From Promethearchaeota archaeon (lineage in GTDB: Archaea > Asgardarchaeota > Lokiarchaeia > Sigyniarchaeales > SOKP01), in NCBI GenBank assembly GCA_048941285.1, contig JBHLNS010000004.1, positions 2,896-66,895 of the forward strand: a stretch of 64,000 bases of DNA, read 5' to 3'. This document shows positions 19,425 through 44,303 of this stretch, piece after piece. The translations under genes and the position numbers were made by a program. The notes beneath the pieces are model-generated. The model saw nothing but the letters and a program-made list of their open reading frames with translations. It was not told where the DNA came from and did no database searches. Positions within the stretch are counted from its first letter, which is position 1. Every line of letters begins with the position of its first letter.

Positions 19425-21422
19425 CTAATCCTCCAAAAATGAGCTATATTTTTCTACTAATTTATTCTTGAGGCGATTTTCTTTTGAATTCATTGATTGA
19501 AGGTTTTCATTTGATTCGAAAAGCTCTAAGCCTTCAATTTTTCTTTTACTTAATTTATTTCTAAGAAAATTTTCAGCATTTTTCTGCTCTATTTTATTTA
19601 TAATATTGAAATCGTTGTCTTTTTCAACACACTCGAAAACAAACTGTTCCATAAATCTTGTGCTTAGCTCTTCATTAATTAAGATGAGATTTGTCTCATC
19701 AAAATCTAATTTCTTTTGATAATAAGGTGTGGCAAATTCATATTGGAGTTCTGATTTCTGTTTATAAAGTCTTAGATAAATATATGCTATTAGAACAATA
19801 TAAAACGAAATTACACCATAACCTAAATTAATTAGGAAAGATAAAACTGAATACGCTTGGAATAATAATACTAATAAAAAAAAAAAACCATAAAGCATAA
19901 AGGGAGTTGAATATTTTCGTAAGTCTTTAATAAATTTATTTGAAGCTTTACAATGTAGATCCAATGCGTTCTTCTGTTCGCTATAAGTTTCTATTAGAAA
20001 ATGCTTTTGGTCAATGTATTGCAGGAAATCCTGTAGCTGGGATAGTGATAAAATATGTATATTTAATTGTTTTTGGTAAGCAAATGGAACAAGCTTTTCA
20101 GCAAAACCTACATTATTTCGATGTATTAATAATGGTTCAATTAAGATTTTATATTGAAGTGGTCCAGAGCGAAAAAAAAGTTTTTTGTGTGTAAAAGTTT
20201 TTTCCAGAAAAAGGTTGATATTTAAATATTTAGATAAATATCTAAAAAATCTTCCTTCATTTAACATATCTTCAAGAAGAACATCCTGGATATTTTTAAA
20301 TGCTTTTAAATATGATTGAGATAGTCTTTCTAACCTAAAATTCTGTTCAGTATAATTCCCTATAGATCGATATTTAATTGCATTACCTGATACAATAATT
20401 GAACCATTTAAAGAACTAATCTTTATAGGGATGATTAATATCAATTCCAAGAATTCTTTTACTCGGATGAGTTTAACTGCTAGGAGATCTATTCCAGTAA
20501 ATATCGTTCTTAATTCCGGACTTTTTTTAATTATAACAAATTCAGATAATTCAAGTTCTTTTGCAGTTTCCAAATAAATTTCCTGTAATTGAGAAGAATT
20601 TAAAGATTCACTAGAGATTGTATCTTGTTCCTGGACTTTAAGATTAGATTGTCGTAATAATTCTGGAGGGACAACTAGGAAGTTATTTATTTCCGATTCT
20701 TGGGATAATTCGGGATTATTTTTTTCTATTTTTTTTTCAGAAACATTAAAATTGCTAATTGATGCGCCATTATTATCAATCTCTTCGTAATCAAACTCCT
20801 CAAGGTTATCGTCATACCTTTCAAAATTCTCCAAACTATTTTCTAAAGGTTTAATATCAGATGTATCAATCTGTGGAGCATACCACTCTTCAGTTTCAGG
20901 TTTTTCAAATTTTCTTTCAAACCATCTATGTGATCCTTCCCCTGATTTTGATTCTTTGGTGTTGTCCAGATTTATCCTAATATTGCTTTTTTCTGGAAAA
21001 TCGTTTAATTTTTTTAGCCTTACATGCTGCTTCGCGTTTTCTATAAATTTTTGGGCTTTAACTATCCCAATACCATTAATCTGAGTTATTTTCTTTGGTG
21101 AAGAATATGCTAATTCTGAGATTGAACTAATACCAATTTCAGCAAGCTTTTCAGCAACTTTTAAACCAATACCATCTATTATTGTAAGGGATTCTCTTTT
21201 TATACTTGGATTTAAAGAGTTTTGTTGCGACACATTTGAATTAAATATATCAAATTTATCGATCCATTCACAATTCTTTTGCAATTTAGCTTCCCTAAGG
21301 CCATTATTAGATATTTTTAGCGCTTGATCTACATCATTTGCTTGAAAGGCTTCTTGTGCCATTTTGTAGTAGAACTTCAAATCCGATTTTTTCTGCATTA
21401 AACCATCTTGAGTATCAGTCAT
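19425..21422 (-). CDS. membrane protein with N-terminal TPR-like helix pair and tandem helix-hairpin-helix DNA-binding motifs
   Basis: 665-aa ORF with HhH motifs IDGIGLKVAEKLAEIGISSISEL and INGIGIVKAQKFIENA. An acidic linker follows, then a TM hairpin (FMLYGFFFLLVLLFQAYSVLSFLINLGYGVISFYIVLIAYIYL). First gene of the operon. Confidence 0.6.
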   Translation of the reverse strand: MTDTQDGLMQKKSDLKFYYKMAQEAFQANDVDQALKISNNGLREAKLQKNCEWIDKFDIFNSNVSQQNSLNPSIKRESLTIIDGIGLKVAEKLAEIGISSISELAYSSPKKITQINGIGIVKAQKFIENAKQHVRLKKLNDFPEKSNIRINLDNTKESKSGEGSHRWFERKFEKPETEEWYAPQIDTSDIKPLENSLENFERYDDNLEEFDYEEIDNNGASISNFNVSEKKIEKNNPELSQESEINNFLVVPPELLRQSNLKVQEQDTISSESLNSSQLQEIYLETAKELELSEFVIIKKSPELRTIFTGIDLLAVKLIRVKEFLELILIIPIKISSLNGSIIVSGNAIKYRSIGNYTEQNFRLERLSQSYLKAFKNIQDVLLEDMLNEGRFFRYLSKYLNINLFLEKTFTHKKLFFRSGPLQYKILIEPLLIHRNNVGFAEKLVPFAYQKQLNIHILSLSQLQDFLQYIDQKHFLIETYSEQKNALDLHCKASNKFIKDLRKYSTPFMLYGFFFLLVLLFQAYSVLSFLINLGYGVISFYIVLIAYIYLRLYKQKSELQYEFATPYYQKKLDFDETNLILINEELSTRFMEQFVFECVEKDNDFNIINKIEQKNAENFLRNKLSKRKIEGLELFESNENLQSMNSKENRLKNKLVEKYSSFLED

Positions 21423-21930: not shown

Positions 21931-24468
21931 ATGGTATTAACAGATTTTACTGACAAAATTAAAAAAAAAGAGTTAGAAACTGAGGCTGAAAATGAGATCT
22001 TCAAATATGTATCTGATAAACGCATCCTAAGAGTGCTTTTTGAAGGAAGAATCTTTAGTTTACGGCAGATTCAAATTGATACTATAAAAATGGGATTATT
22101 TTTTCGAAAATCATTTTTAATAAGTGCACCTTCCGGGAGCGGAAAGACTCTAATTGGTGAATTATGTGCTATTAATAATATCTTTCAGAAATTTGGAAAA
22201 TCAATTTATTTAGTCCCATATAAGGCTTTAGCTACAGAAAAGTATTCTCATTTTAAGAAGAGCTATAGTCGATACGGAATAAAGATAGAGCTTTCTATAG
22301 GTGATTATGATGTGGATGACTCTAAATTAGAAAAAGCAGATTTAATAGTCACCACTTATGAAAAAATGGATTCAATTCTTAGAAATTTCTATGATAAAGA
22401 GTGGATTTTTAATATTTCGACTATAATAATTGATGAAATTCATATTATTGGTGAATCTGACAGAGGACCACGATTAGAGTCCTTAATAGTCAGGCTAAAT
22501 GAATTCCTTCATAATCCACAGATAATTGGACTTTCAGCAACTATAGCAAATGCAGAATTTTTTAATTCGTGGCTTTCTTCGCTTGGAAATAAAACAACTT
22601 TAATTAAATCAGATATTCGTCCTGTACCACTCCATTACAGAGTCGAAATTACCCAAAATAAAGATTCAACTATAAAAAGGTTTATTAGATCCACACTTGA
22701 AAAAAATGGACAAGTACTTATCTTTGTAAACCGTCGGAAAGGCGCACAGAAGGTAGCAGAGAATATTAAAACATTAGTTTGCAAATTTCTCGAAGAAAAT
22801 GAATTAAATATTTGCATGTCCCTTGAAAAAAGATTATCTTCAATTAAAGGAGGACATCGTGAATTGAAAAAGATCATAAAATCTGGTGTTGCATTTCATC
22901 ATGCAGGTTTACTTCCAAAGGAGAGAAAAATTATTGAAGATAACTTTAGAAAGCGCATTATTAAAGTAATCTGCTGTACTACAACACTCTCAGCCGGGAT
23001 AAATACCCCTGCTCGTGTTGTTATCTTGAAAGATTTTAAGAAGTATGTAACTTCTGGCCATAATATTAAGAACTTCTCAGGATATTTCGAAAATGGGGAT
23101 GGTTTTTCTTATTTTAAACCTTTTTCTGCAAACGAAGTATTTCAAATATTAGGGAGAGCTGGAAGGCCTGGACTTGATTCTGTTGGTTATGGAATAATTT
23201 TGGTTAAAAATATTGAAGAAAAAATGTGGGTTGAAGATCGATTTTTCCAAAATCATGTACTTAAAGACGTTTCAAAACCTAAATATAATGATCTCATTTC
23301 AGGTTTAAACAAGATAAATACTCTAAAAGAACAGGTATTATTAAGAGTTTTTGAGGAAAAAAAAATCACATTAGAACAGTTAAAACAATTTTTCGAAAAA
23401 ACCTATTTCTGGTATGGAATTAAAAGTAAAATGAAGGAACAGAAAATTCCTATTGAACAATTACTGATGATAAAGGAGATTACCCCCATCAATATTTTAA
23501 AGCTTCATACTGATGCTAATACAGTAAAAGAGTTAAAAGATAGTAATTACCAAATTAAATTAACCAATCTTAATGGTTCAAATATCTCTGCATATGTAAA
23601 AACTTCATTTGGGGTATATTATTGCCAATTTGATATTGAAACAGGAATTCAGTGTACATGTGGATTTAAGAATGGCATTTCTGATAACTTCGCAAATGAT
23701 GAATTTTCTTTCGAGTTTTGTAAACATATTACATCTTTTTTACTCTACTCCGTCCAGCTTCCCGATGCTAAATTTCAAAAGTATGTTGATTCAATCATTC
23801 CAAAATCAGTAAAAAACCAATATATCTTATCATATCTTTTTGAGAAAGGATTAATTTTAAAAGATAAGAAGGGATTAATCAGATGTTCTCATTTTGGCAA
23901 ATTAATAATCAGATTATATTTATACCCAGTTTCTGGTGTGATGATTAGGTATAAACTTGAAAATAATGAAATAAATACTTTTCAAGATTTGATTAAAGAA
24001 GCATTTGACATTTTGAAGGCAGAATTCCGCGTCAAAGACAATAAAATGCTACAGCCTATTTTAGAGTGGGCAGATGAGGAACCGATTGACCAAATTTTAG
24101 ATAAATATAATATTATGGCGGGAGATTTATTTTCTGTAAGAGATAATTTAGAACGAATTATCATATTTATCGGAATTATTGCTGGTAATTTAAGTACAAA
24201 CGGGATTGATCTCCAAGATAAGTTAATCAGAATCGCGGAAATGTGTGAAACTCTAAAAATCCGATTACACTATGGTATTCATGAAGAATTATTTGATCTA
24301 GTTTTAAGATTAGGTGACGTAGCACGCGTAAGAGCAAGAATATTATATAAAGCAGGATATCATACAGCTTCACAATTAAAAAAGGAAAATCCTTATGTCT
24401 TAAATCAAAAAACTGGCCTAGGTATAAATTTATGTAAAAAAATCATTATAAATAAGAAATCGAAATAA
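21931..24468 (+). CDS. Ski2-like/Hel308-family superfamily-2 DNA helicase with inserted SWIM zinc finger
   Basis: Walker A APSGSGKTLIGE, DEIH box (IIDEIH), SAT (LSAT), motif VI QILGRAGRPG and a C-terminal HhH-like RARILYKAGYHTASQL. At 845 aa it is about 130 aa longer than typical Hel308. The insert contains CTC-x21-CKH. Confidence 0.8.
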   Translation: MVLTDFTDKIKKKELETEAENEIFKYVSDKRILRVLFEGRIFSLRQIQIDTIKMGLFFRKSFLISAPSGSGKTLIGELCAINNIFQKFGKSIYLVPYKALATEKYSHFKKSYSRYGIKIELSIGDYDVDDSKLEKADLIVTTYEKMDSILRNFYDKEWIFNISTIIIDEIHIIGESDRGPRLESLIVRLNEFLHNPQIIGLSATIANAEFFNSWLSSLGNKTTLIKSDIRPVPLHYRVEITQNKDSTIKRFIRSTLEKNGQVLIFVNRRKGAQKVAENIKTLVCKFLEENELNICMSLEKRLSSIKGGHRELKKIIKSGVAFHHAGLLPKERKIIEDNFRKRIIKVICCTTTLSAGINTPARVVILKDFKKYVTSGHNIKNFSGYFENGDGFSYFKPFSANEVFQILGRAGRPGLDSVGYGIILVKNIEEKMWVEDRFFQNHVLKDVSKPKYNDLISGLNKINTLKEQVLLRVFEEKKITLEQLKQFFEKTYFWYGIKSKMKEQKIPIEQLLMIKEITPINILKLHTDANTVKELKDSNYQIKLTNLNGSNISAYVKTSFGVYYCQFDIETGIQCTCGFKNGISDNFANDEFSFEFCKHITSFLLYSVQLPDAKFQKYVDSIIPKSVKNQYILSYLFEKGLILKDKKGLIRCSHFGKLIIRLYLYPVSGVMIRYKLENNEINTFQDLIKEAFDILKAEFRVKDNKMLQPILEWADEEPIDQILDKYNIMAGDLFSVRDNLERIIIFIGIIAGNLSTNGIDLQDKLIRIAEMCETLKIRLHYGIHEELFDLVLRLGDVARVRARILYKAGYHTASQLKKENPYVLNQKTGLGINLCKKIIINKKSK

Positions 24469-34378: not shown

Positions 34379-34723
34379 ATGAAAGGGTACTGTTATATTG
34401 CGTTAATTATTGGATTTTTTATCTTCTATCAGCAAAATCCTATCTATGCCATCGTTATTATCGCATTATTTATTGGGGTATATTTATTTTTCAAATCAAG
34501 ATCATCAGGTTCAAATAGAAGCATATTAGGTTTTTTTAGTGGGAGAAATACGCAACAAGATAATAGAATGGATGATTTAATTACATTAATGATGATACAG
34601 CAATTAATGAATTCATCCTCTCAGAGTAGCGATAATCGAGGAGGAAATGATAAAAAGAAGGAACAAGACGAACAGATTGATAAAATAAAACAAGAAGTTC
34701 TCGAATTACTTGAAGAAGATTGA
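34379..34723 (+). CDS. small membrane protein with polar/acidic C-terminus
   Basis: 114-aa ORF with two N-terminal TM helices. Confidence 0.5.
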   Translation: MKGYCYIALIIGFFIFYQQNPIYAIVIIALFIGVYLFFKSRSSGSNRSILGFFSGRNTQQDNRMDDLITLMMIQQLMNSSSQSSDNRGGNDKKKEQDEQIDKIKQEVLELLEED

Positions 34724-34724
34724 A

Positions 34725-35435
34725 ATGCAAGCAGATTTAGAGTTTTTTGAAGAAATCCGACAGTTATTACATTATCATAACATTGTTTCTATTTCAGGAG
34801 AATCTGGTACGGGAAAGACAACCCTTGCACTTCACTTAATAGGGAATCTATTAACACAGAAAAAACCATATATAGCCTCATGCATATGGATTCAAGCAAG
34901 TGAAAGATTTCCGATCAAACGGTTAACGCAAATTTTTGAAGATACATCTAAAAGATTGGAATATATAAAAAATAATACATATCTTCTACCACAAAAGGGA
35001 CTAATCCATACCTATGAAGAACAAATTTCAAGAATTCGAAAAATAATAGATTTAACATCCAATAACCCACCTTCTCTTAAATATATAGTCATTGATAATA
35101 TTTCACACCATTTACGTTACAAATTAACTCAATTTAATAATCCAAAAGATATTTTACCTATACTAGATGACTTTTACGAGACGCAACTTATGCCACTCAT
35201 TTTATTTTGTAAGCGAAATGAGATATCCTTGATATTAATTCATGAAGTTACTTATATCCCTACACTCCAAAAAATTAGACCCTTCTTTTATAAGTTATAT
35301 GATAGAATTAAGACAATTGATATTGTTTTAAGTAAGTTTAATAATAACAAAAAGATGATTCTAGATTTATTTTTTAACGAATTAAAGTGGACTTTTCAAT
35401 TTAGTTTAGAGCAAAAAGGTATAATAATGATATAA
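34725..35435 (+). CDS. RecA-superfamily ATPase, RadB/Rad51-paralog-like
   Basis: Walker A ISGESGTGKTTLALHL and Walker B-like YIVIDNISHHL. It has no N-terminal HhH domain. The ATG at 34725 lies 1 nt after the preceding stop. Confidence 0.55.
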   Translation: MQADLEFFEEIRQLLHYHNIVSISGESGTGKTTLALHLIGNLLTQKKPYIASCIWIQASERFPIKRLTQIFEDTSKRLEYIKNNTYLLPQKGLIHTYEEQISRIRKIIDLTSNNPPSLKYIVIDNISHHLRYKLTQFNNPKDILPILDDFYETQLMPLILFCKRNEISLILIHEVTYIPTLQKIRPFFYKLYDRIKTIDIVLSKFNNNKKMILDLFFNELKWTFQFSLEQKGIIMI

Positions 35436-36059: not shown

Positions 36060-36458
36060 ATGGAAATAAATTCAATCAATACGGAACCTACGCCACATAT
36101 TATACATGAACTTGTAAAGTGTGGGATTTGCAGAGATGAGATTAAACGAGGAGCCTCGATATATCAGGAAGGGCTTACTTTCGGAGTTGTCTGTGAACAT
36201 TGCTACAAAAATAATTCGCAAGAAGACCTAGAGCTGATGGCAAATATTTTTCTGGCCTATGGAGGTTATTTTGGAAAGTTAAAACAGAAAAAATTTTCTG
36301 TATATAAGACAATAAAAAAGCTAATGGCGCAATTTCAGCCAGGTAAAGACTTGGATACCTTAATTGAGCTTAACATTAAAATGATGCATCAAGCACTTTT
36401 ATATGGGGTTACTCCTCAAGAACTCATTCACGGATTAAAAATTCTTCTAAATGAGTAA
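36060..36458 (+). CDS. hypothetical Cys-containing protein
   Basis: 132-aa ORF with CGIC...CEHC. A consensus TATA element 20 nt upstream suggests a leaderless mRNA. Confidence 0.5.
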   Translation: MEINSINTEPTPHIIHELVKCGICRDEIKRGASIYQEGLTFGVVCEHCYKNNSQEDLELMANIFLAYGGYFGKLKQKKFSVYKTIKKLMAQFQPGKDLDTLIELNIKMMHQALLYGVTPQELIHGLKILLNE

Positions 36459-36975: not shown

Positions 36976-38202
36976 ATGGCAGATTTAGATCAAGTAAAAG
37001 CAATCAATTCCCGTCAGATAAAACTACTCCAAGAAAACGGTATAAGTACTGCAGAAGCATTAGCAATGAGTCCTCACTCTATAGTTGCTTCAATTGATGG
37101 TCTTGGAGAAAAGACCGCAAAAAAGTTAATCTGGAATGCTAGGAATGCATTAGGGATGACCGATTTTACTCCTGCTGCCAAAATAGATGATAATGTTGAA
37201 TACATTACAACAGGGTCCGCTGAATTAAATCGAATTTTAGGTGGTGGGTTTCAAACTGGAAAATTGACTGAGGTATATGGGCCATTTAAATCCGGAAAAA
37301 CAGCTTTAGCACATACAATAGCAGTTACAGTTCAATTACCTGAAAAGAAAGGTGGAATTAATAGTGCTGTTGCCTATATTGATACTGAAAATACATTCTC
37401 TAAAGAAAAAATCAAAAGAATAGCTAAACGATTTGAACTGAATCCAAAAGATGTACTTTCAAAGATTTATCACGCAAGGATCTACTCCTCAGATCATCAA
37501 GCTCAAATGATCCAAAAGGCTGAAACACTTTGTAAAACTCGTGGAGTCCGGTTAATTGTCATAGACAGCTTAATGGCTTTACTACGTGCTGAGTATGTAG
37601 GAATTGGTAGATTGGCTCCTCGTCAAGCAGTTTTAAATAATATGATTCATGGCTTATCACGTATAGCAGAGATATATAATTGCGCAGTTTTACTTACTAA
37701 TCAAGTAGCTACAAGAATGATGGGTATGTTTTCAGCTGATGATGCTATAGGTGGTAATATCCTAGCTCATGGTTGTCATTTCAGAGTAATGTTTAAAACA
37801 AAAGGATTCTCTTCTAATAGCTCACTCCAACGGAGGGCTATTATAGTTGACGCACCAGATCTACCACCAGACGAAGCTGAGTTCTATATCACAGGAGTAG
37901 GCGTTGCTGATACCGATAAAGTCGAACTTTCTGAATCTACAGGTTTAGATTTCGAAATTGAAACTCTATATGAAGAAAATGACTCTAAACAAGAAGTTAA
38001 TGAATCTGAAGAAGAGATTTCTCTATTAAATGTGAAAGGTATTGGTAAAGGGACTTTAGAAAATTTAAAGACCCGTGGGATTCTTTCTGTTTCAGATTTA
38101 ATAGCAGCAGACCCAGAAGAGCTCTCAGCAAGCATATCGGGAGCTTCGGCAAAGATGGTGAGTGAGTGGCAAACCAATGCTAGAGCACTAATTAATATTT
38201 AA
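36976..38202 (+). CDS. radA: DNA repair and recombination protein RadA with an extra C-terminal HhH domain
   Basis: N-terminal HhH domain (NSRQIKLLQENGISTAEALA...IDGLGEKTAKKLIWNARNAL), Walker A GPFKSGKTALAHT and Walker B LIVIDSLMALLRAEY. The core ends at ...FYITGVGVAD (aa 312). An acidic linker and a second HhH follow (VKGIGKGTLENLKTRGILSVSDL). Confidence 0.9.
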   Translation: MADLDQVKAINSRQIKLLQENGISTAEALAMSPHSIVASIDGLGEKTAKKLIWNARNALGMTDFTPAAKIDDNVEYITTGSAELNRILGGGFQTGKLTEVYGPFKSGKTALAHTIAVTVQLPEKKGGINSAVAYIDTENTFSKEKIKRIAKRFELNPKDVLSKIYHARIYSSDHQAQMIQKAETLCKTRGVRLIVIDSLMALLRAEYVGIGRLAPRQAVLNNMIHGLSRIAEIYNCAVLLTNQVATRMMGMFSADDAIGGNILAHGCHFRVMFKTKGFSSNSSLQRRAIIVDAPDLPPDEAEFYITGVGVADTDKVELSESTGLDFEIETLYEENDSKQEVNESEEEISLLNVKGIGKGTLENLKTRGILSVSDLIAADPEELSASISGASAKMVSEWQTNARALINI

Positions 38203-38348
38203 ATACTTGTTTTTTTATTCTTTTAACTTTTTTTTATGCAATTATTTAATTTTCAAACCATAAATCTTGACTTAGATATGCATATTATTTTTAATCCTAT
38301 AACTTCAAATTTTAATATTAAATAATCAACACCCTTAAGATTTGAACT

Positions 38349-38397: not shown

Positions 38398-38901
38398 ATG
38401 GGAACTTTAACTAAAGATGAAGTTAATGCTTTACCAACTCGATTTGATAAAGTGGCTTATAGTACTTTTTTCAAACTGTGGTATGCCTTGCAGAAAGCGC
38501 TTCCTGCTGAGAAGAAGGATGAAATTTTGACAAAGATTGGGCGAACTATTGGAAAAGAATTCAATGAAGAAGGCATTGAGACGCTTGAAGATTTTTTAAG
38601 ACGATTAAGGGAATTTTTAGAACAGGAATGGGCAATTACCGACAATGCAAAAGTAGATATAAAAATGGATGAGGAAGGAAATGCAACAAAAATTCTTGCT
38701 TACCAAGACAGTTGTAAAATGTGTTTTGCCAATACATATTACAGGTACCATGATTACGGAAGCCCTTCTTGCATGTTCCCACAAGTTATGATGGGAATCT
38801 TATCAAAGGTTAAAAATAAGTTTGGGTTTAGAAATCTACGATTTGAGGGGGTTGAAAAAGGCGGAGTTGGTGAATGTGCGATGCAGTGGAATGTTAGATA
38901 A
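38398..38901 (+). CDS. V4R-domain-like protein
   Basis: The C-terminal pattern SCKMCFAN...SPSCMFPQVMMGILSKV...GGVGECAMQWNV resembles the V4R (4-vinyl reductase) small-molecule-binding domain. Confidence 0.45.
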   Translation: MGTLTKDEVNALPTRFDKVAYSTFFKLWYALQKALPAEKKDEILTKIGRTIGKEFNEEGIETLEDFLRRLREFLEQEWAITDNAKVDIKMDEEGNATKILAYQDSCKMCFANTYYRYHDYGSPSCMFPQVMMGILSKVKNKFGFRNLRFEGVEKGGVGECAMQWNVR

Positions 38902-41597: not shown

Positions 41598-42068
41598 ATG
41601 AAATCAAAACTGCAATTGGTGATTCCCCTGCTATTAATTGGGGTTTTTACATTAATACCTAGTATTTTAATTAATATTGAGGGTATTGCTGATAAATCTA
41701 TTAATTTTGAAACAATTGCACAAGGATGGAATTCAGATTATACAACTCATGAATATATAGTTATAGACTCTCAAGTATTATGGGTAAAAATTTGGGATCA
41801 AACGTTTTCATCAATTCAACCTCAACCAGAAACACCCTATATTGATTTTACACAAAACAGTGTAATCGCTGTATTTTCCGGTTTTAAGCCAACGGGGGGT
41901 TATTCCATAAATATCACAAAAATTAGAGTAAAGATAACTTCTGTTTATGTATATGTTGAAAATATTTCCCCTCCTCCAGAAGTAGAAGTTCCTGCTGTAA
42001 TAACATTTCCATATCATATAATAAAAACACAAAAACTCTTTCTAAATATTATTTTTCAACGTATTTAA
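41598..42068 (+). CDS. exported PrcB-C-terminal-domain-like protein
   Basis: Signal/anchor MKSKLQLVIPLLLIGVFTLIPSIL and the motif VIAVFSGFKPTGGYSINITKI typical of the PrcB C-terminal domain. Confidence 0.5.
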   Translation: MKSKLQLVIPLLLIGVFTLIPSILINIEGIADKSINFETIAQGWNSDYTTHEYIVIDSQVLWVKIWDQTFSSIQPQPETPYIDFTQNSVIAVFSGFKPTGGYSINITKIRVKITSVYVYVENISPPPEVEVPAVITFPYHIIKTQKLFLNIIFQRI

Positions 42069-43208: not shown

Positions 43209-44303
43209 ATGGGTGTTAAATTACAGAATCTTATTTTAAGAAAGGTTATTGAATTTCAAGATTTAAATGGGAAGATTGCGGCAATTGATGCTCCAAACAT
43301 AATTATGGGATTATTTAATTTTGCTGTGAAGAATCAAGATAATCTAAAAACAGGATTAATATTAGATCGAACACAACGACCAATTTCTCATCTATATGGT
43401 CTTCTGTATCGAGTTAATTTCTTTTACTCAAAGAATATTTTCCCGGTATTTTGCTTTGATGGAAAGGTTTCAGAACTTAAAAAAATAATAACAAAAGATC
43501 AATTACGGGATTTCATATTTACTCAGAACTGGTATAATGAGGCATTGAGAACTGGGAATAAAATCTTAGCTAGAGATATAGCACTAAGTAAGGAATATAT
43601 GTGGCAGAACATTATCAAAGAATCAAAACAACTTATTGGTGCGTTAGGTGTTCCCTATATAGAATCTCCCGCATCAGCAGAATCTCAATGTGCCTATTTA
43701 GTGAAAAGAGGATTGGTTGATTATTCTAATTCACAAGATTTTGATTCTCTCTTATTTGGATGTCCCTTATTAATCCAAAATCTTTCAAAATCATTAAGAA
43801 GGAAAATTCAAGGAAAGTGGCATTATCATAAGATACAACCCGTTGTTATTGATCTACAAAAGAATTTAAAAAATTTAGGTATTTCAATATTTCAATTAGT
43901 TGATATTGGAATATTAATAGGTACAGATTATTTTCCTGGTGTAGGTGGTATTGGATCAAAAAAAGCATTGAGTCTTGTTAGAAAATACAAATCTCTTGAA
44001 AAAATTATTCTAAAAGAGTATAATAAGTATGATTTTGGTCAATTAAACCCAGATCTTATTAAAAAAGTAAGAAAAATCTTTTTATTCCCTAATGTTAAAG
44101 GAAGAATTGATAACCTTTTGTGGAATCCCCCTAATAAAACAAGAATAAATTCATTATTGTGTGAAGAACATCATTTAAATAAAAGCCGTGTAGAAAAAAA
44201 TCTTGAACAATTTGAATTGAATTATAAGAAATGTAGAAATTATTTCATACAATATAAAAAACAACCAAAAAGACTCCAAGTTACATTAGATAATATCCCA
44301 TAA
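43209..44303 (+). CDS. fen: flap endonuclease 1 (FEN1)
   Basis: MGVKLQNLI...GKIAAIDAPN, HLYGLLYR, FCFDG, ESPASAESQCAYL, SQDFDSLLFG and H3TH GTDYFPGVGGIGSKKAL. A TATA element ends ~24 nt before the ATG. Confidence 0.9.
   Translation: MGVKLQNLILRKVIEFQDLNGKIAAIDAPNIIMGLFNFAVKNQDNLKTGLILDRTQRPISHLYGLLYRVNFFYSKNIFPVFCFDGKVSELKKIITKDQLRDFIFTQNWYNEALRTGNKILARDIALSKEYMWQNIIKESKQLIGALGVPYIESPASAESQCAYLVKRGLVDYSNSQDFDSLLFGCPLLIQNLSKSLRRKIQGKWHYHKIQPVVIDLQKNLKNLGISIFQLVDIGILIGTDYFPGVGGIGSKKALSLVRKYKSLEKIILKEYNKYDFGQLNPDLIKKVRKIFLFPNVKGRIDNLLWNPPNKTRINSLLCEEHHLNKSRVEKNLEQFELNYKKCRNYFIQYKKQPKRLQVTLDNIP

Follow-up and report, generated by a model that had tools for sequence, protein, structure and literature searches.

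The question raised by this locus is whether an archaeal RadA recombinase can carry a second helix-hairpin-helix (HhH) domain behind its catalytic core and, if so, what that domain may do and where it came from. The gene concerned, radA, lies in a 64-kb stretch of contig JBHLNS010000004.1 from a Promethearchaeota archaeon (hereafter the window, all coordinates being positions of this whole stretch), where the ORF list gives it as one open reading frame (ORF) of 408 codons plus stop at 36976..38202 on the forward strand (+); residue numbers refer to the 408-residue window protein. The first-pass annotation had proposed that the recombinase core ends at residue 312, where canonical RadAs terminate, and that the remainder forms an acidic linker followed by an HhH domain copied from the protein's own N-terminal one. 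The sequences it quoted are correct, and the extension, 37912-38199, corresponds exactly to codons 313-408. These 96 residues are organized as an acidic-aromatic peptide, an acidic spacer and a tandem HhH domain, (HhH)2.

The window protein is classed as a RadA strand-exchange recombinase, of predicted activity, from a Loki-type Asgard archaeon (NCBI Promethearchaeota/Promethearchaeia). The NCBIfam RadA model PRK04301 aligns residues 2-312 with its positions 5-315 of 316 (323.3 bits, cutoff 259), bearing out the placement of the core end at residue 312, while the older RadA equivalog, TIGR02236, gives 289.8 bits (cutoff 361). The Pfam RecA match is restricted to the core (71-271), and Pfam HHH_5 is matched twice, at the N-terminus and at 349-398, the latter being the better of the two. 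When the protein was modelled with AlphaFold2, a 50-sequence family alignment resulted in a poor core, with a predicted local distance difference test (pLDDT) score of 62; a 117-sequence alignment including distant RadAs was used instead, giving a mean pLDDT of 87 and a predicted template-modelling score (pTM) of 0.73, with a confident N-terminal domain (NTD) and core. As seen by Foldseek against the Protein Data Bank (PDB), these two parts match the filament protomers of RAD51, Dmc1 and RadA (E 1e-30 to 1e-34), superposing over ~320 columns with a target template-modelling (TM) score of 0.87-0.93 and a root-mean-square deviation of ~2 Å. No solved recombinase covers the tail, because these alignments never exceed ~325 columns.

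The tail begins with a conserved acidic-aromatic peptide, residues 313-334 (37912..37977, +), recognized by its conservation in the family, with the consensus T-D-K-V-E-[LI]-P-E-S-x-G-L-D-F-E-[VI]-E-T-L-Y-E-[ED]. Among 120 sequences, F326 is kept in 113, E329 and L331 in 117 each, Y332 in 116 and E333 in all 120, and an h-[YF]-E motif is present in 222 of 229 linkers; the peptide (313-334) has no Pfam match. In the AlphaFold2 model, residues 311-320 have a pLDDT of ~80 and residues 327-345 fall below 50, and with confidence lost from residue 327 onwards, the position of the peptide in the monomer is uncertain. Next comes a variable acidic spacer, residues 335-346 (37978..38013, +), predicted to be disordered (pLDDT ~38). 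The stretch aligned to residues 335-349 varies from 3 to 21 residues in the family, with 36% Asp plus Glu, 16% Ser and a mean net charge of -4; for residues 313-349 the mean net charge is -10. The linker as a whole measures 20-45 residues in the wider family (median 34).

The C-terminal domain (CTD), residues ~347-408 (38014..38199, +), is delimited by Pfam, AlphaFold2 and conservation. By itself it scores 37.6 bits against HHH_5 (cutoff 27, E 3.2e-9), and it is modelled with a pLDDT of 93-97 as five helices (350-352, 358-366, 372-377, 380-386 and 392-407), whose order and spacing match those of the NTD helices (12-20, 26-31, 34-38 and 44-58). Its first hairpin, V353-K-G-I-G-K-G-T360 (38032..38055, +), has G355 and G357 in 290/290 family clusters and K354 in 282/290; its second, I387-S-G-A-S391 (38134..38148, +), has G389 in 290/290 and S391 in 284/290. 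Further basic positions are K393 (223/290) and K/R403 (272/290). Meanwhile E397, eight residues after the hairpin glycine, occupies the position of the DNA-binding lysine of the NTD and is Glu or Asp in 277/290, and the mean net charge of the CTD is ~0.

The extension is present in every family member examined. A 146-kb contig of a 'Promethearchaeota archaeon' metagenome-assembled genome (MAG) encodes the identical protein, and the best 120 database clusters, with 75-90% identity, are all 396-422 residues long, with a query coverage of 99-100%. A scan for the CTD motif in one genome per GTDB species yielded 43 loci, 41 of them complete and two cut by contig ends, all labelled Asgard or 'uncultured archaeon' bar one 3.4-kb contig labelled as a bacterial bin. 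Every complete locus has a single uninterrupted ORF, whose BLASTP alignment with the window RadA (68-90% identity) begins at residue 1-2 of the latter and ends at 402-408. As these alignments run end to end within intact ORFs, core and extension share one reading frame in 41/41 loci, and the spacer indels are always in frame. The CTD with both hairpin signatures is present in all 290 family clusters. These loci also share flanking genes with the window, among them a RadB-like ATPase and a 132-residue Cys-rich ORF upstream and a 334-residue membrane protein and a 105-residue ORF downstream, which indicates that the genes are orthologues at one chromosomal locus.

Selection on the tail was estimated as the ratio of nonsynonymous to synonymous differences per site (pN/pS) by Nei-Gojobori counts in 95 orthologue pairs with >84% identity. 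The values, which are rough because synonymous sites are near saturation (pS ~0.6), are 0.07 for the NTD, 0.06 for the core, 0.17 for residues 313-334, 0.91 for the spacer (335-346) and 0.21 for the CTD. The contrast between the spacer and its neighbours is clear: peptide and CTD are under purifying selection, whereas the spacer evolves freely. It follows that the tail is translated with the rest of RadA and maintained by selection. A 97-residue antisense ORF over the extension (37884..38177, -) is almost certainly spurious, as selection on the sense frame is strongly purifying.

In 82/290 clusters, the protein is annotated with 368-396 residues, mostly beginning with 'MSPHNI/MSPNNI', which corresponds to M31 of the window RadA. 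In three independent short-form loci (L047 1407-1500; L050 and L051; L052; of P0364, P0355 and P0287), the 28-30 upstream codons are stop-free and in frame, encode the conserved first HhH motif and are preceded by the same GGAG box, with ATT or ATA where the window radA has its ATG (36976). The short members (381 residues) were thus rejected as variants with a truncated NTD and are start-site miscalls, and radA of a whole subclade probably initiates at AUU/AUA. As a separate observation, the MAG ABR03 holds two extended radA copies on two contigs (L017 and L035, 94% identical), which may reflect a mixture of strains in the bin or a duplication of recent date. Some short contigs with Asgard-type radA (L039; P0389 and P0405) are filed under Neomarinimicrobiota, Patescibacteria and Omnitrophica bins, probably by mis-binning.

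Outside this clade, no comparable domain was seen. An exhaustive HMMER search of 1.84 billion representatives at 50% identity recovered an isolated clade, consisting of one full-length representative (87% identity, 787 bits) and a few fragments, beyond which the matches reach at most 226 bits and 50% identity and their alignments stop at query residue ~312. Among the 126 nearest non-clade RadA/Rad51 representatives reaching the core end, the sequence continues for a median of 1 residue past the equivalent of 312, and for ≤5 residues in 103, as had been supposed for canonical RadAs. None of the 126 has a folded C-terminal domain, the longer tails being low-complexity charged or apparent junk; with the lack of any solved match past ~325 columns, this confirms that the HhH-core-HhH arrangement is not canonical. 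When the HMMER representatives were scanned with the CTD profile, all non-clade matches fell in N-terminal domains. By these comparisons, the C-terminal module occurs in a single RadA lineage only. Any two of the 41 complete species-level orthologues share ≥66% identity; to the window RadA, outlying clade fragments are 58-62% identical and all else is ≤~50%. The sources of the clade are labelled 'Promethearchaeota', 'Promethearchaeia' or 'Lokiarchaeota' and, in one study, Hermod-/Hod-/Thor-/Odinarchaeota, and all loci with the extended radA are low in G+C (28-44%). A possible second RadA clade in Lokiarchaeia, weakly supported, has been described (PMC12722695). As close outgroup, P0125 (50% identity) and P0121 (62%) were rejected, being orphan fragments whose nearest relatives are the extended family.

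Other C-terminal tails were encountered beside this search. P0137, a 244-residue fragment whose core shares 68% identity with residues 179-322 of the window RadA, has a different tail of ~100 residues, a Lys-rich stretch followed by 'GDLEDDFESLKQAGFEEKYAALIEHY...', with no Pfam match; possibly a sister lineage has a C-terminal module of another kind here. This hints that the RadA C-terminus is a site of module turnover. Seven unrelated archaeal RadAs (P0217, P0231, P0159, P0240, P0267, P0155 and P0132) bear low-complexity C-terminal tails of 20-70 residues with no folded domain, mostly acidic or mixed-charge; charged C-terminal tails thus recur in RadA.

The remainder of the protein follows the known plan. 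The gene, preceded by a GGAG box, lies in an AT-rich window with a G+C content of ~29% throughout, and T-rich tracts read from the sequence immediately 3' of its stop (38210..38236, +) are presumably an archaeal oligo-T terminator. The N-terminal (HhH)2 domain, residues 1-62 (36976..37161, +), scores 33.6 bits against HHH_5 (residues 3-56; cutoff 27) and is modelled with a pLDDT of 89-95; its first hairpin is degenerate (KAINSRQ) and its second canonical (DGLGEKT), and K50 is kept in 286/290 family clusters. In the linker to the core lies an FxxA-type polymerization motif, F64-T-P-A67 (37165..37176, +), whose F64 and A67 do not vary in an alignment of 50 sequences; in Rad51 and RadA, FxxA makes the protomer-protomer contact. 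The RecA-fold ATPase core, residues 73-312 (37192..37911, +; Pfam Rad51 74-312, E 2.8e-69), has the Walker A motif GPFKSGKT (102-109), the Walker B motif LIVIDS and the L1 and L2 loops, L2 being seen as a dip in pLDDT at 247-253. G102, G107, K108, T109, D197 and S198 are invariant in the same alignment.

Regarding the function of the tail, the proposal preferred here, tentatively and at slightly below an even chance, is that the tail would provide an additional, tethered contact with DNA at the surface of the filament, gated or damped by the acidic tether. The (HhH)2 CTD, held on a leash of ~35 residues at the filament surface, would act as a second, sequence-independent contact for duplex DNA, helping the presynaptic filament to capture or hold donor double-stranded DNA (dsDNA), a task also suggested for the RecA CTD and the Rad51/RadA NTD, and the acidic tether and the conserved peptide would damp or gate this contact, or provide a docking site. 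Such a tether may be likened to the acidic C-terminal tail of RecA, which damps DNA binding, and to the acidic tails of single-strand-binding (SSB)-type proteins. The module would have been acquired and then stably kept in the Loki-type lineage as part of one polypeptide.

The proposal draws on the known behaviour of these domains, as binding of dsDNA is documented for the HhH of the RadA NTD and has been proposed for the RecA CTD (PMC1964548). In S. solfataricus (Sso) RadA, dsDNA binding and D-loop formation need Lys27 and Lys60, with Gly52 conserved alongside, the human equivalents being Lys40, Lys73 and Gly65, respectively (PMC1964548). The CTD fits an HhH that binds the DNA backbone, due to its hairpin glycines (290/290), K354 (282/290) and K/R403 (272/290), and its nearest non-RadA matches include the HhH of DNA enzymes, namely Y-family polymerase, the topoisomerase I C-terminus, RecB-like nuclease and Hel308. 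The mean net charge of the tether (-10) also counts in its favour. Nevertheless, several points weigh against it. DNA binding by the CTD is inferred. The domain is electrically neutral on average, the position of Sso K60 and human K73 (K50 in its own NTD) is Glu or Asp in 277/290 CTDs, and the second hairpin is atypical (G-A-S). In addition, AlphaFold2 gives no confident placement of the conserved peptide, which, as a short linear motif under conservation, could serve for binding a partner just as well as for autoinhibition.

In the main rival explanation, the CTD and the conserved peptide form a protein-protein or autoregulatory module that does not bind DNA; it is considered less probable than the tethered DNA contact. 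(HhH)2 domains can act as dimerization or regulatory modules, as in XPF-ERCC1 and NusA AR1/AR2. The CTD could thus pair with another (HhH)2, as in XPF-ERCC1, and the partner could be the NTD of its own or a neighbouring protomer, the Hel308-like helicase of the window or a 665-residue HhH protein of the window. Alternatively, it could fold back like NusA AR2 and gate filament assembly, with GLDFE[IV]ETLYEE docking on the RecA-fold surface in cis or in trans. A protein contact is favoured by the charge reversal of the DNA-binding lysine (E397), by a net charge of ~0 beside a linker of -10, by a strongly conserved short linear motif within an otherwise disordered tether and by the presence of two further HhH-bearing repair-type proteins encoded in the same window. 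However, the canonical DNA-backbone signature KGIGKGT is kept in the first hairpin of essentially all members, and the peptide (F-E-[IV]-E) lacks the FxxA signature of the known binders of the Rad51 pocket, such as BRC-type peptides. For the same reason, the peptide was rejected as a mimic of the FxxA polymerization motif, as F326-E-[IV]-E329 has Glu at the Ala position in 117/120 sequences; its L-Y-E-E may resemble the 'LFDE' element of BRC.

In a narrower version, regarded as improbable, the tail would regulate filament dynamics in cis, as an integral part of the recombinase. Both the peptide and the (HhH)2 with its reversed charge would bind the core or NTD of their own protomer, a neighbouring protomer or a partner helicase, so that the tail would gate assembly or dsDNA capture until DNA or a partner releases it. 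If this were true, a mediator or anti-recombinase element would be fused to the recombinase in a lineage close to the eukaryotic stem, a control principle without a described counterpart in RadA/Rad51.

The origin of the CTD is a separate matter, where the first description stands only in part: a second (HhH)2 is present, homologous to the NTD at the level of HHH_5 and with the same order of helices, but its derivation from the protein's own NTD in particular finds no specific support. The similarity of the two ends is significant. BLASTP gives 33% identity over 51 residues (E 8e-5), and the Smith-Waterman score is 60 against 24.7 +/- 4.9 for shuffled sequences, none of 5000 shuffles reaching it (z=7.2). 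Between the NTD and CTD profiles of 120 orthologues, hhalign gives a probability of 92% and E 6e-7 over 54 columns with one gap. Together with the matching secondary structure and an N-A-[RK]-x-L helix ending both domains, this could speak for a recent intragenic duplication of the NTD, leaving a redundant NTD-like function, but such an origin is quite unlikely. The identity is a mere 31-33%, and the CTD profile scores higher with the NTDs of foreign RadAs (29.6 bits for P0178, 29.2 for P0132 and 26.9 for P0155), and even with the HhH of the unrelated 665-residue ORF (22.7 bits), than with the NTD of its own clade (12.5-13.2 bits). Pairwise Smith-Waterman z values give the same ranking (7 for its own NTD, 8 for the 665-residue ORF and 14-15 for the NTDs of P0178, P0132 and P0155). 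Against NCBIfam, the topoisomerase I C-terminal HhH (24.3 bits) scores about like the RadA NTD (22.7 bits) and a RecB-like nuclease (22.5 bits), and against PDB sequences, Y-family polymerase, L32e, Hel308 and the N-domains of RAD51C/D are matched, with archaeal RadA NTDs absent from the best 60 matches. Moreover, the hairpins are inverted, as the CTD has the canonical one first (VKGIGKGT) and the atypical one second (SGAS), in contrast to the clade NTD (K-[GA]-I-N-[AS]-R-Q, then D-G-L-G-E-K-T). The same divergence of the two ends is seen in the whole clade, which places any duplication before its radiation.

The evidence thus speaks for membership of CTD and NTD in the same HHH_5 family and not for a specific self-copy. 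An ancient duplication of a RadA-type N-domain, after which both copies diverged, is possible, and the capture of another HHH_5 domain is also compatible with the data, the candidate sources being separated by narrow margins (27-30 bits for RadA NTDs and 22-25 bits for non-RadA HhH). No gene-fusion precursor of the tail was found, and the locus of P0178, the RadA whose NTD is most similar to both domains, has no downstream HhH gene.

The weakest explanation, an artefact (a frameshift, a mis-assembly fusing a downstream small HhH gene, or untranslated read-through), is suggested by nothing but general caution towards a metagenome-assembled source and is extremely improbable, as the module is in frame in 41/41 species-level loci and 290/290 clusters from independent studies and assemblers, peptide and CTD are under purifying selection, spacer indels keep the frame and the T-rich terminator comes only after the stop at 38200.

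Regarding the surroundings of radA, a 241-residue ORF about 1.5 kb 5' of it (34710..35435, +) encodes a RecA-fold ATPase that matches RadB best (TIGR02237, 42.8 bits, far under the cutoff of 172); within the 3-kb flanks covered, at least 20 of the 43 related loci have it on the 5' side of radA, and it may be a divergent RadA paralogue or mediator. The 132-residue Cys-rich ORF (36060..36458, +), also 5' of radA, is kept in 20 loci, and a 167-residue ORF 3' of it (38398..38901, +) in six close relatives, neither having a Pfam or NCBIfam match. Within 6 kb 3' of radA lie a PrcB_C-domain protein (41598..42068, +) and a FEN1/XPG-type flap endonuclease (43209..44303, +; XPG_I E 8e-24). Further away, an 845-residue ORF (21931..24468, +) is a Ski2/Hel308-like helicase, with 402 bits for PRK02362 and 331 bits for the Hel308 model, both well under cutoff, and only about the first 500 residues covered. 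It adjoins divergently the 665-residue ORF (19425..21422, -), which has an (HhH)2 resembling the RadA NTD at residues 75-139 (NTD region of PRK04301, 36.8 bits), a long acidic low-complexity middle and hydrophobic helices in its C-terminal part.

In full-text literature searches, no account of a RadA with an HhH domain at its C-terminus was found. Two recent phylogenies of Asgard RadA used core-trimmed alignments, one paper being without the terms 'C-terminal', 'extension', 'HhH' and 'domain' and the other without 'C-terminal' and 'helix-hairpin' (PMC12722695; bioRxiv 10.1101/2025.02.19.639135). The sole trace in the records is the automatic NCBI product name 'RadA (modular protein)' of two MAG proteins, and some JGI entries mis-name the extended RadA 'transcription termination factor NusA', presumably due to the HhH repeats. 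What is new is a clade-wide variant of a thoroughly known enzyme and no new kind of system. DNA enzymes often gain HhH modules, and in another RadA lineage the N-terminal HhH is doubled.

Among prokaryotic relatives of Rad51/Dmc1, Asgard RadA stands closest, and reconstructions of how eukaryotic recombination arose make use of it. The C-terminal module has no direct bearing on eukaryogenesis, because it is absent from all other RadA/Rad51 sampled, a sample including eukaryotic-type Rad51/Dmc1 as judged by score and length. Loki-type RadA may differ from the textbook enzyme in dsDNA capture, salt dependence, self-regulation and partner recruitment, which is relevant to anyone expressing it as a model of an 'ancestral Rad51'. 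In addition, it has long been suggested that the RecA CTD and the Rad51 NTD can replace one another as 'outer-lobe' modules for dsDNA binding, and the tail provides a natural test of this.

Compared with known systems, the window RadA shares with canonical RadA and Rad51-Dmc1 the N-terminal (HhH)2, the FxxA linker motif, the RecA-fold core, Walker A and B and the L1 and L2 loops, whereas those proteins end ~0-5 residues past the core and in the Loki-type clade a further 96 residues follow, among them another folded HhH. RadAs of the Methanospirillum type (P0168 and P0276-P0278) are alike in having two HHH_5 domains and a total of ~408 residues, but their HhH domains are in N-terminal tandem (residues 5-58 and 92-143) and they lack the C-terminal module, the acidic tether and the conserved peptide. 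The HhH domains of archaeal topoisomerase I, Hel308 domain 5 and Y-family polymerase, which give the best non-RadA matches of the CTD, are likewise C-terminal, sequence-independent modules for DNA contact or regulation, that of Hel308 being a brake and sensor of single-stranded DNA (PMC13623763); however, they belong to other catalytic cores, and a similarity of 15-25 bits is that of the HhH superfamily in general. Bacterial RecA, finally, also has a small extra domain C-terminal of the core together with an acidic segment, and a role in dsDNA binding has been proposed for it (PMC1964548). Its CTD is an α/β domain, not homologous to the all-helical HHH_5 tail of Loki-type RadA, and its acidic residues form the extreme tail instead of a tether between core and domain, so that the resemblance may lie in a possible mode of action and not in membership of one family.

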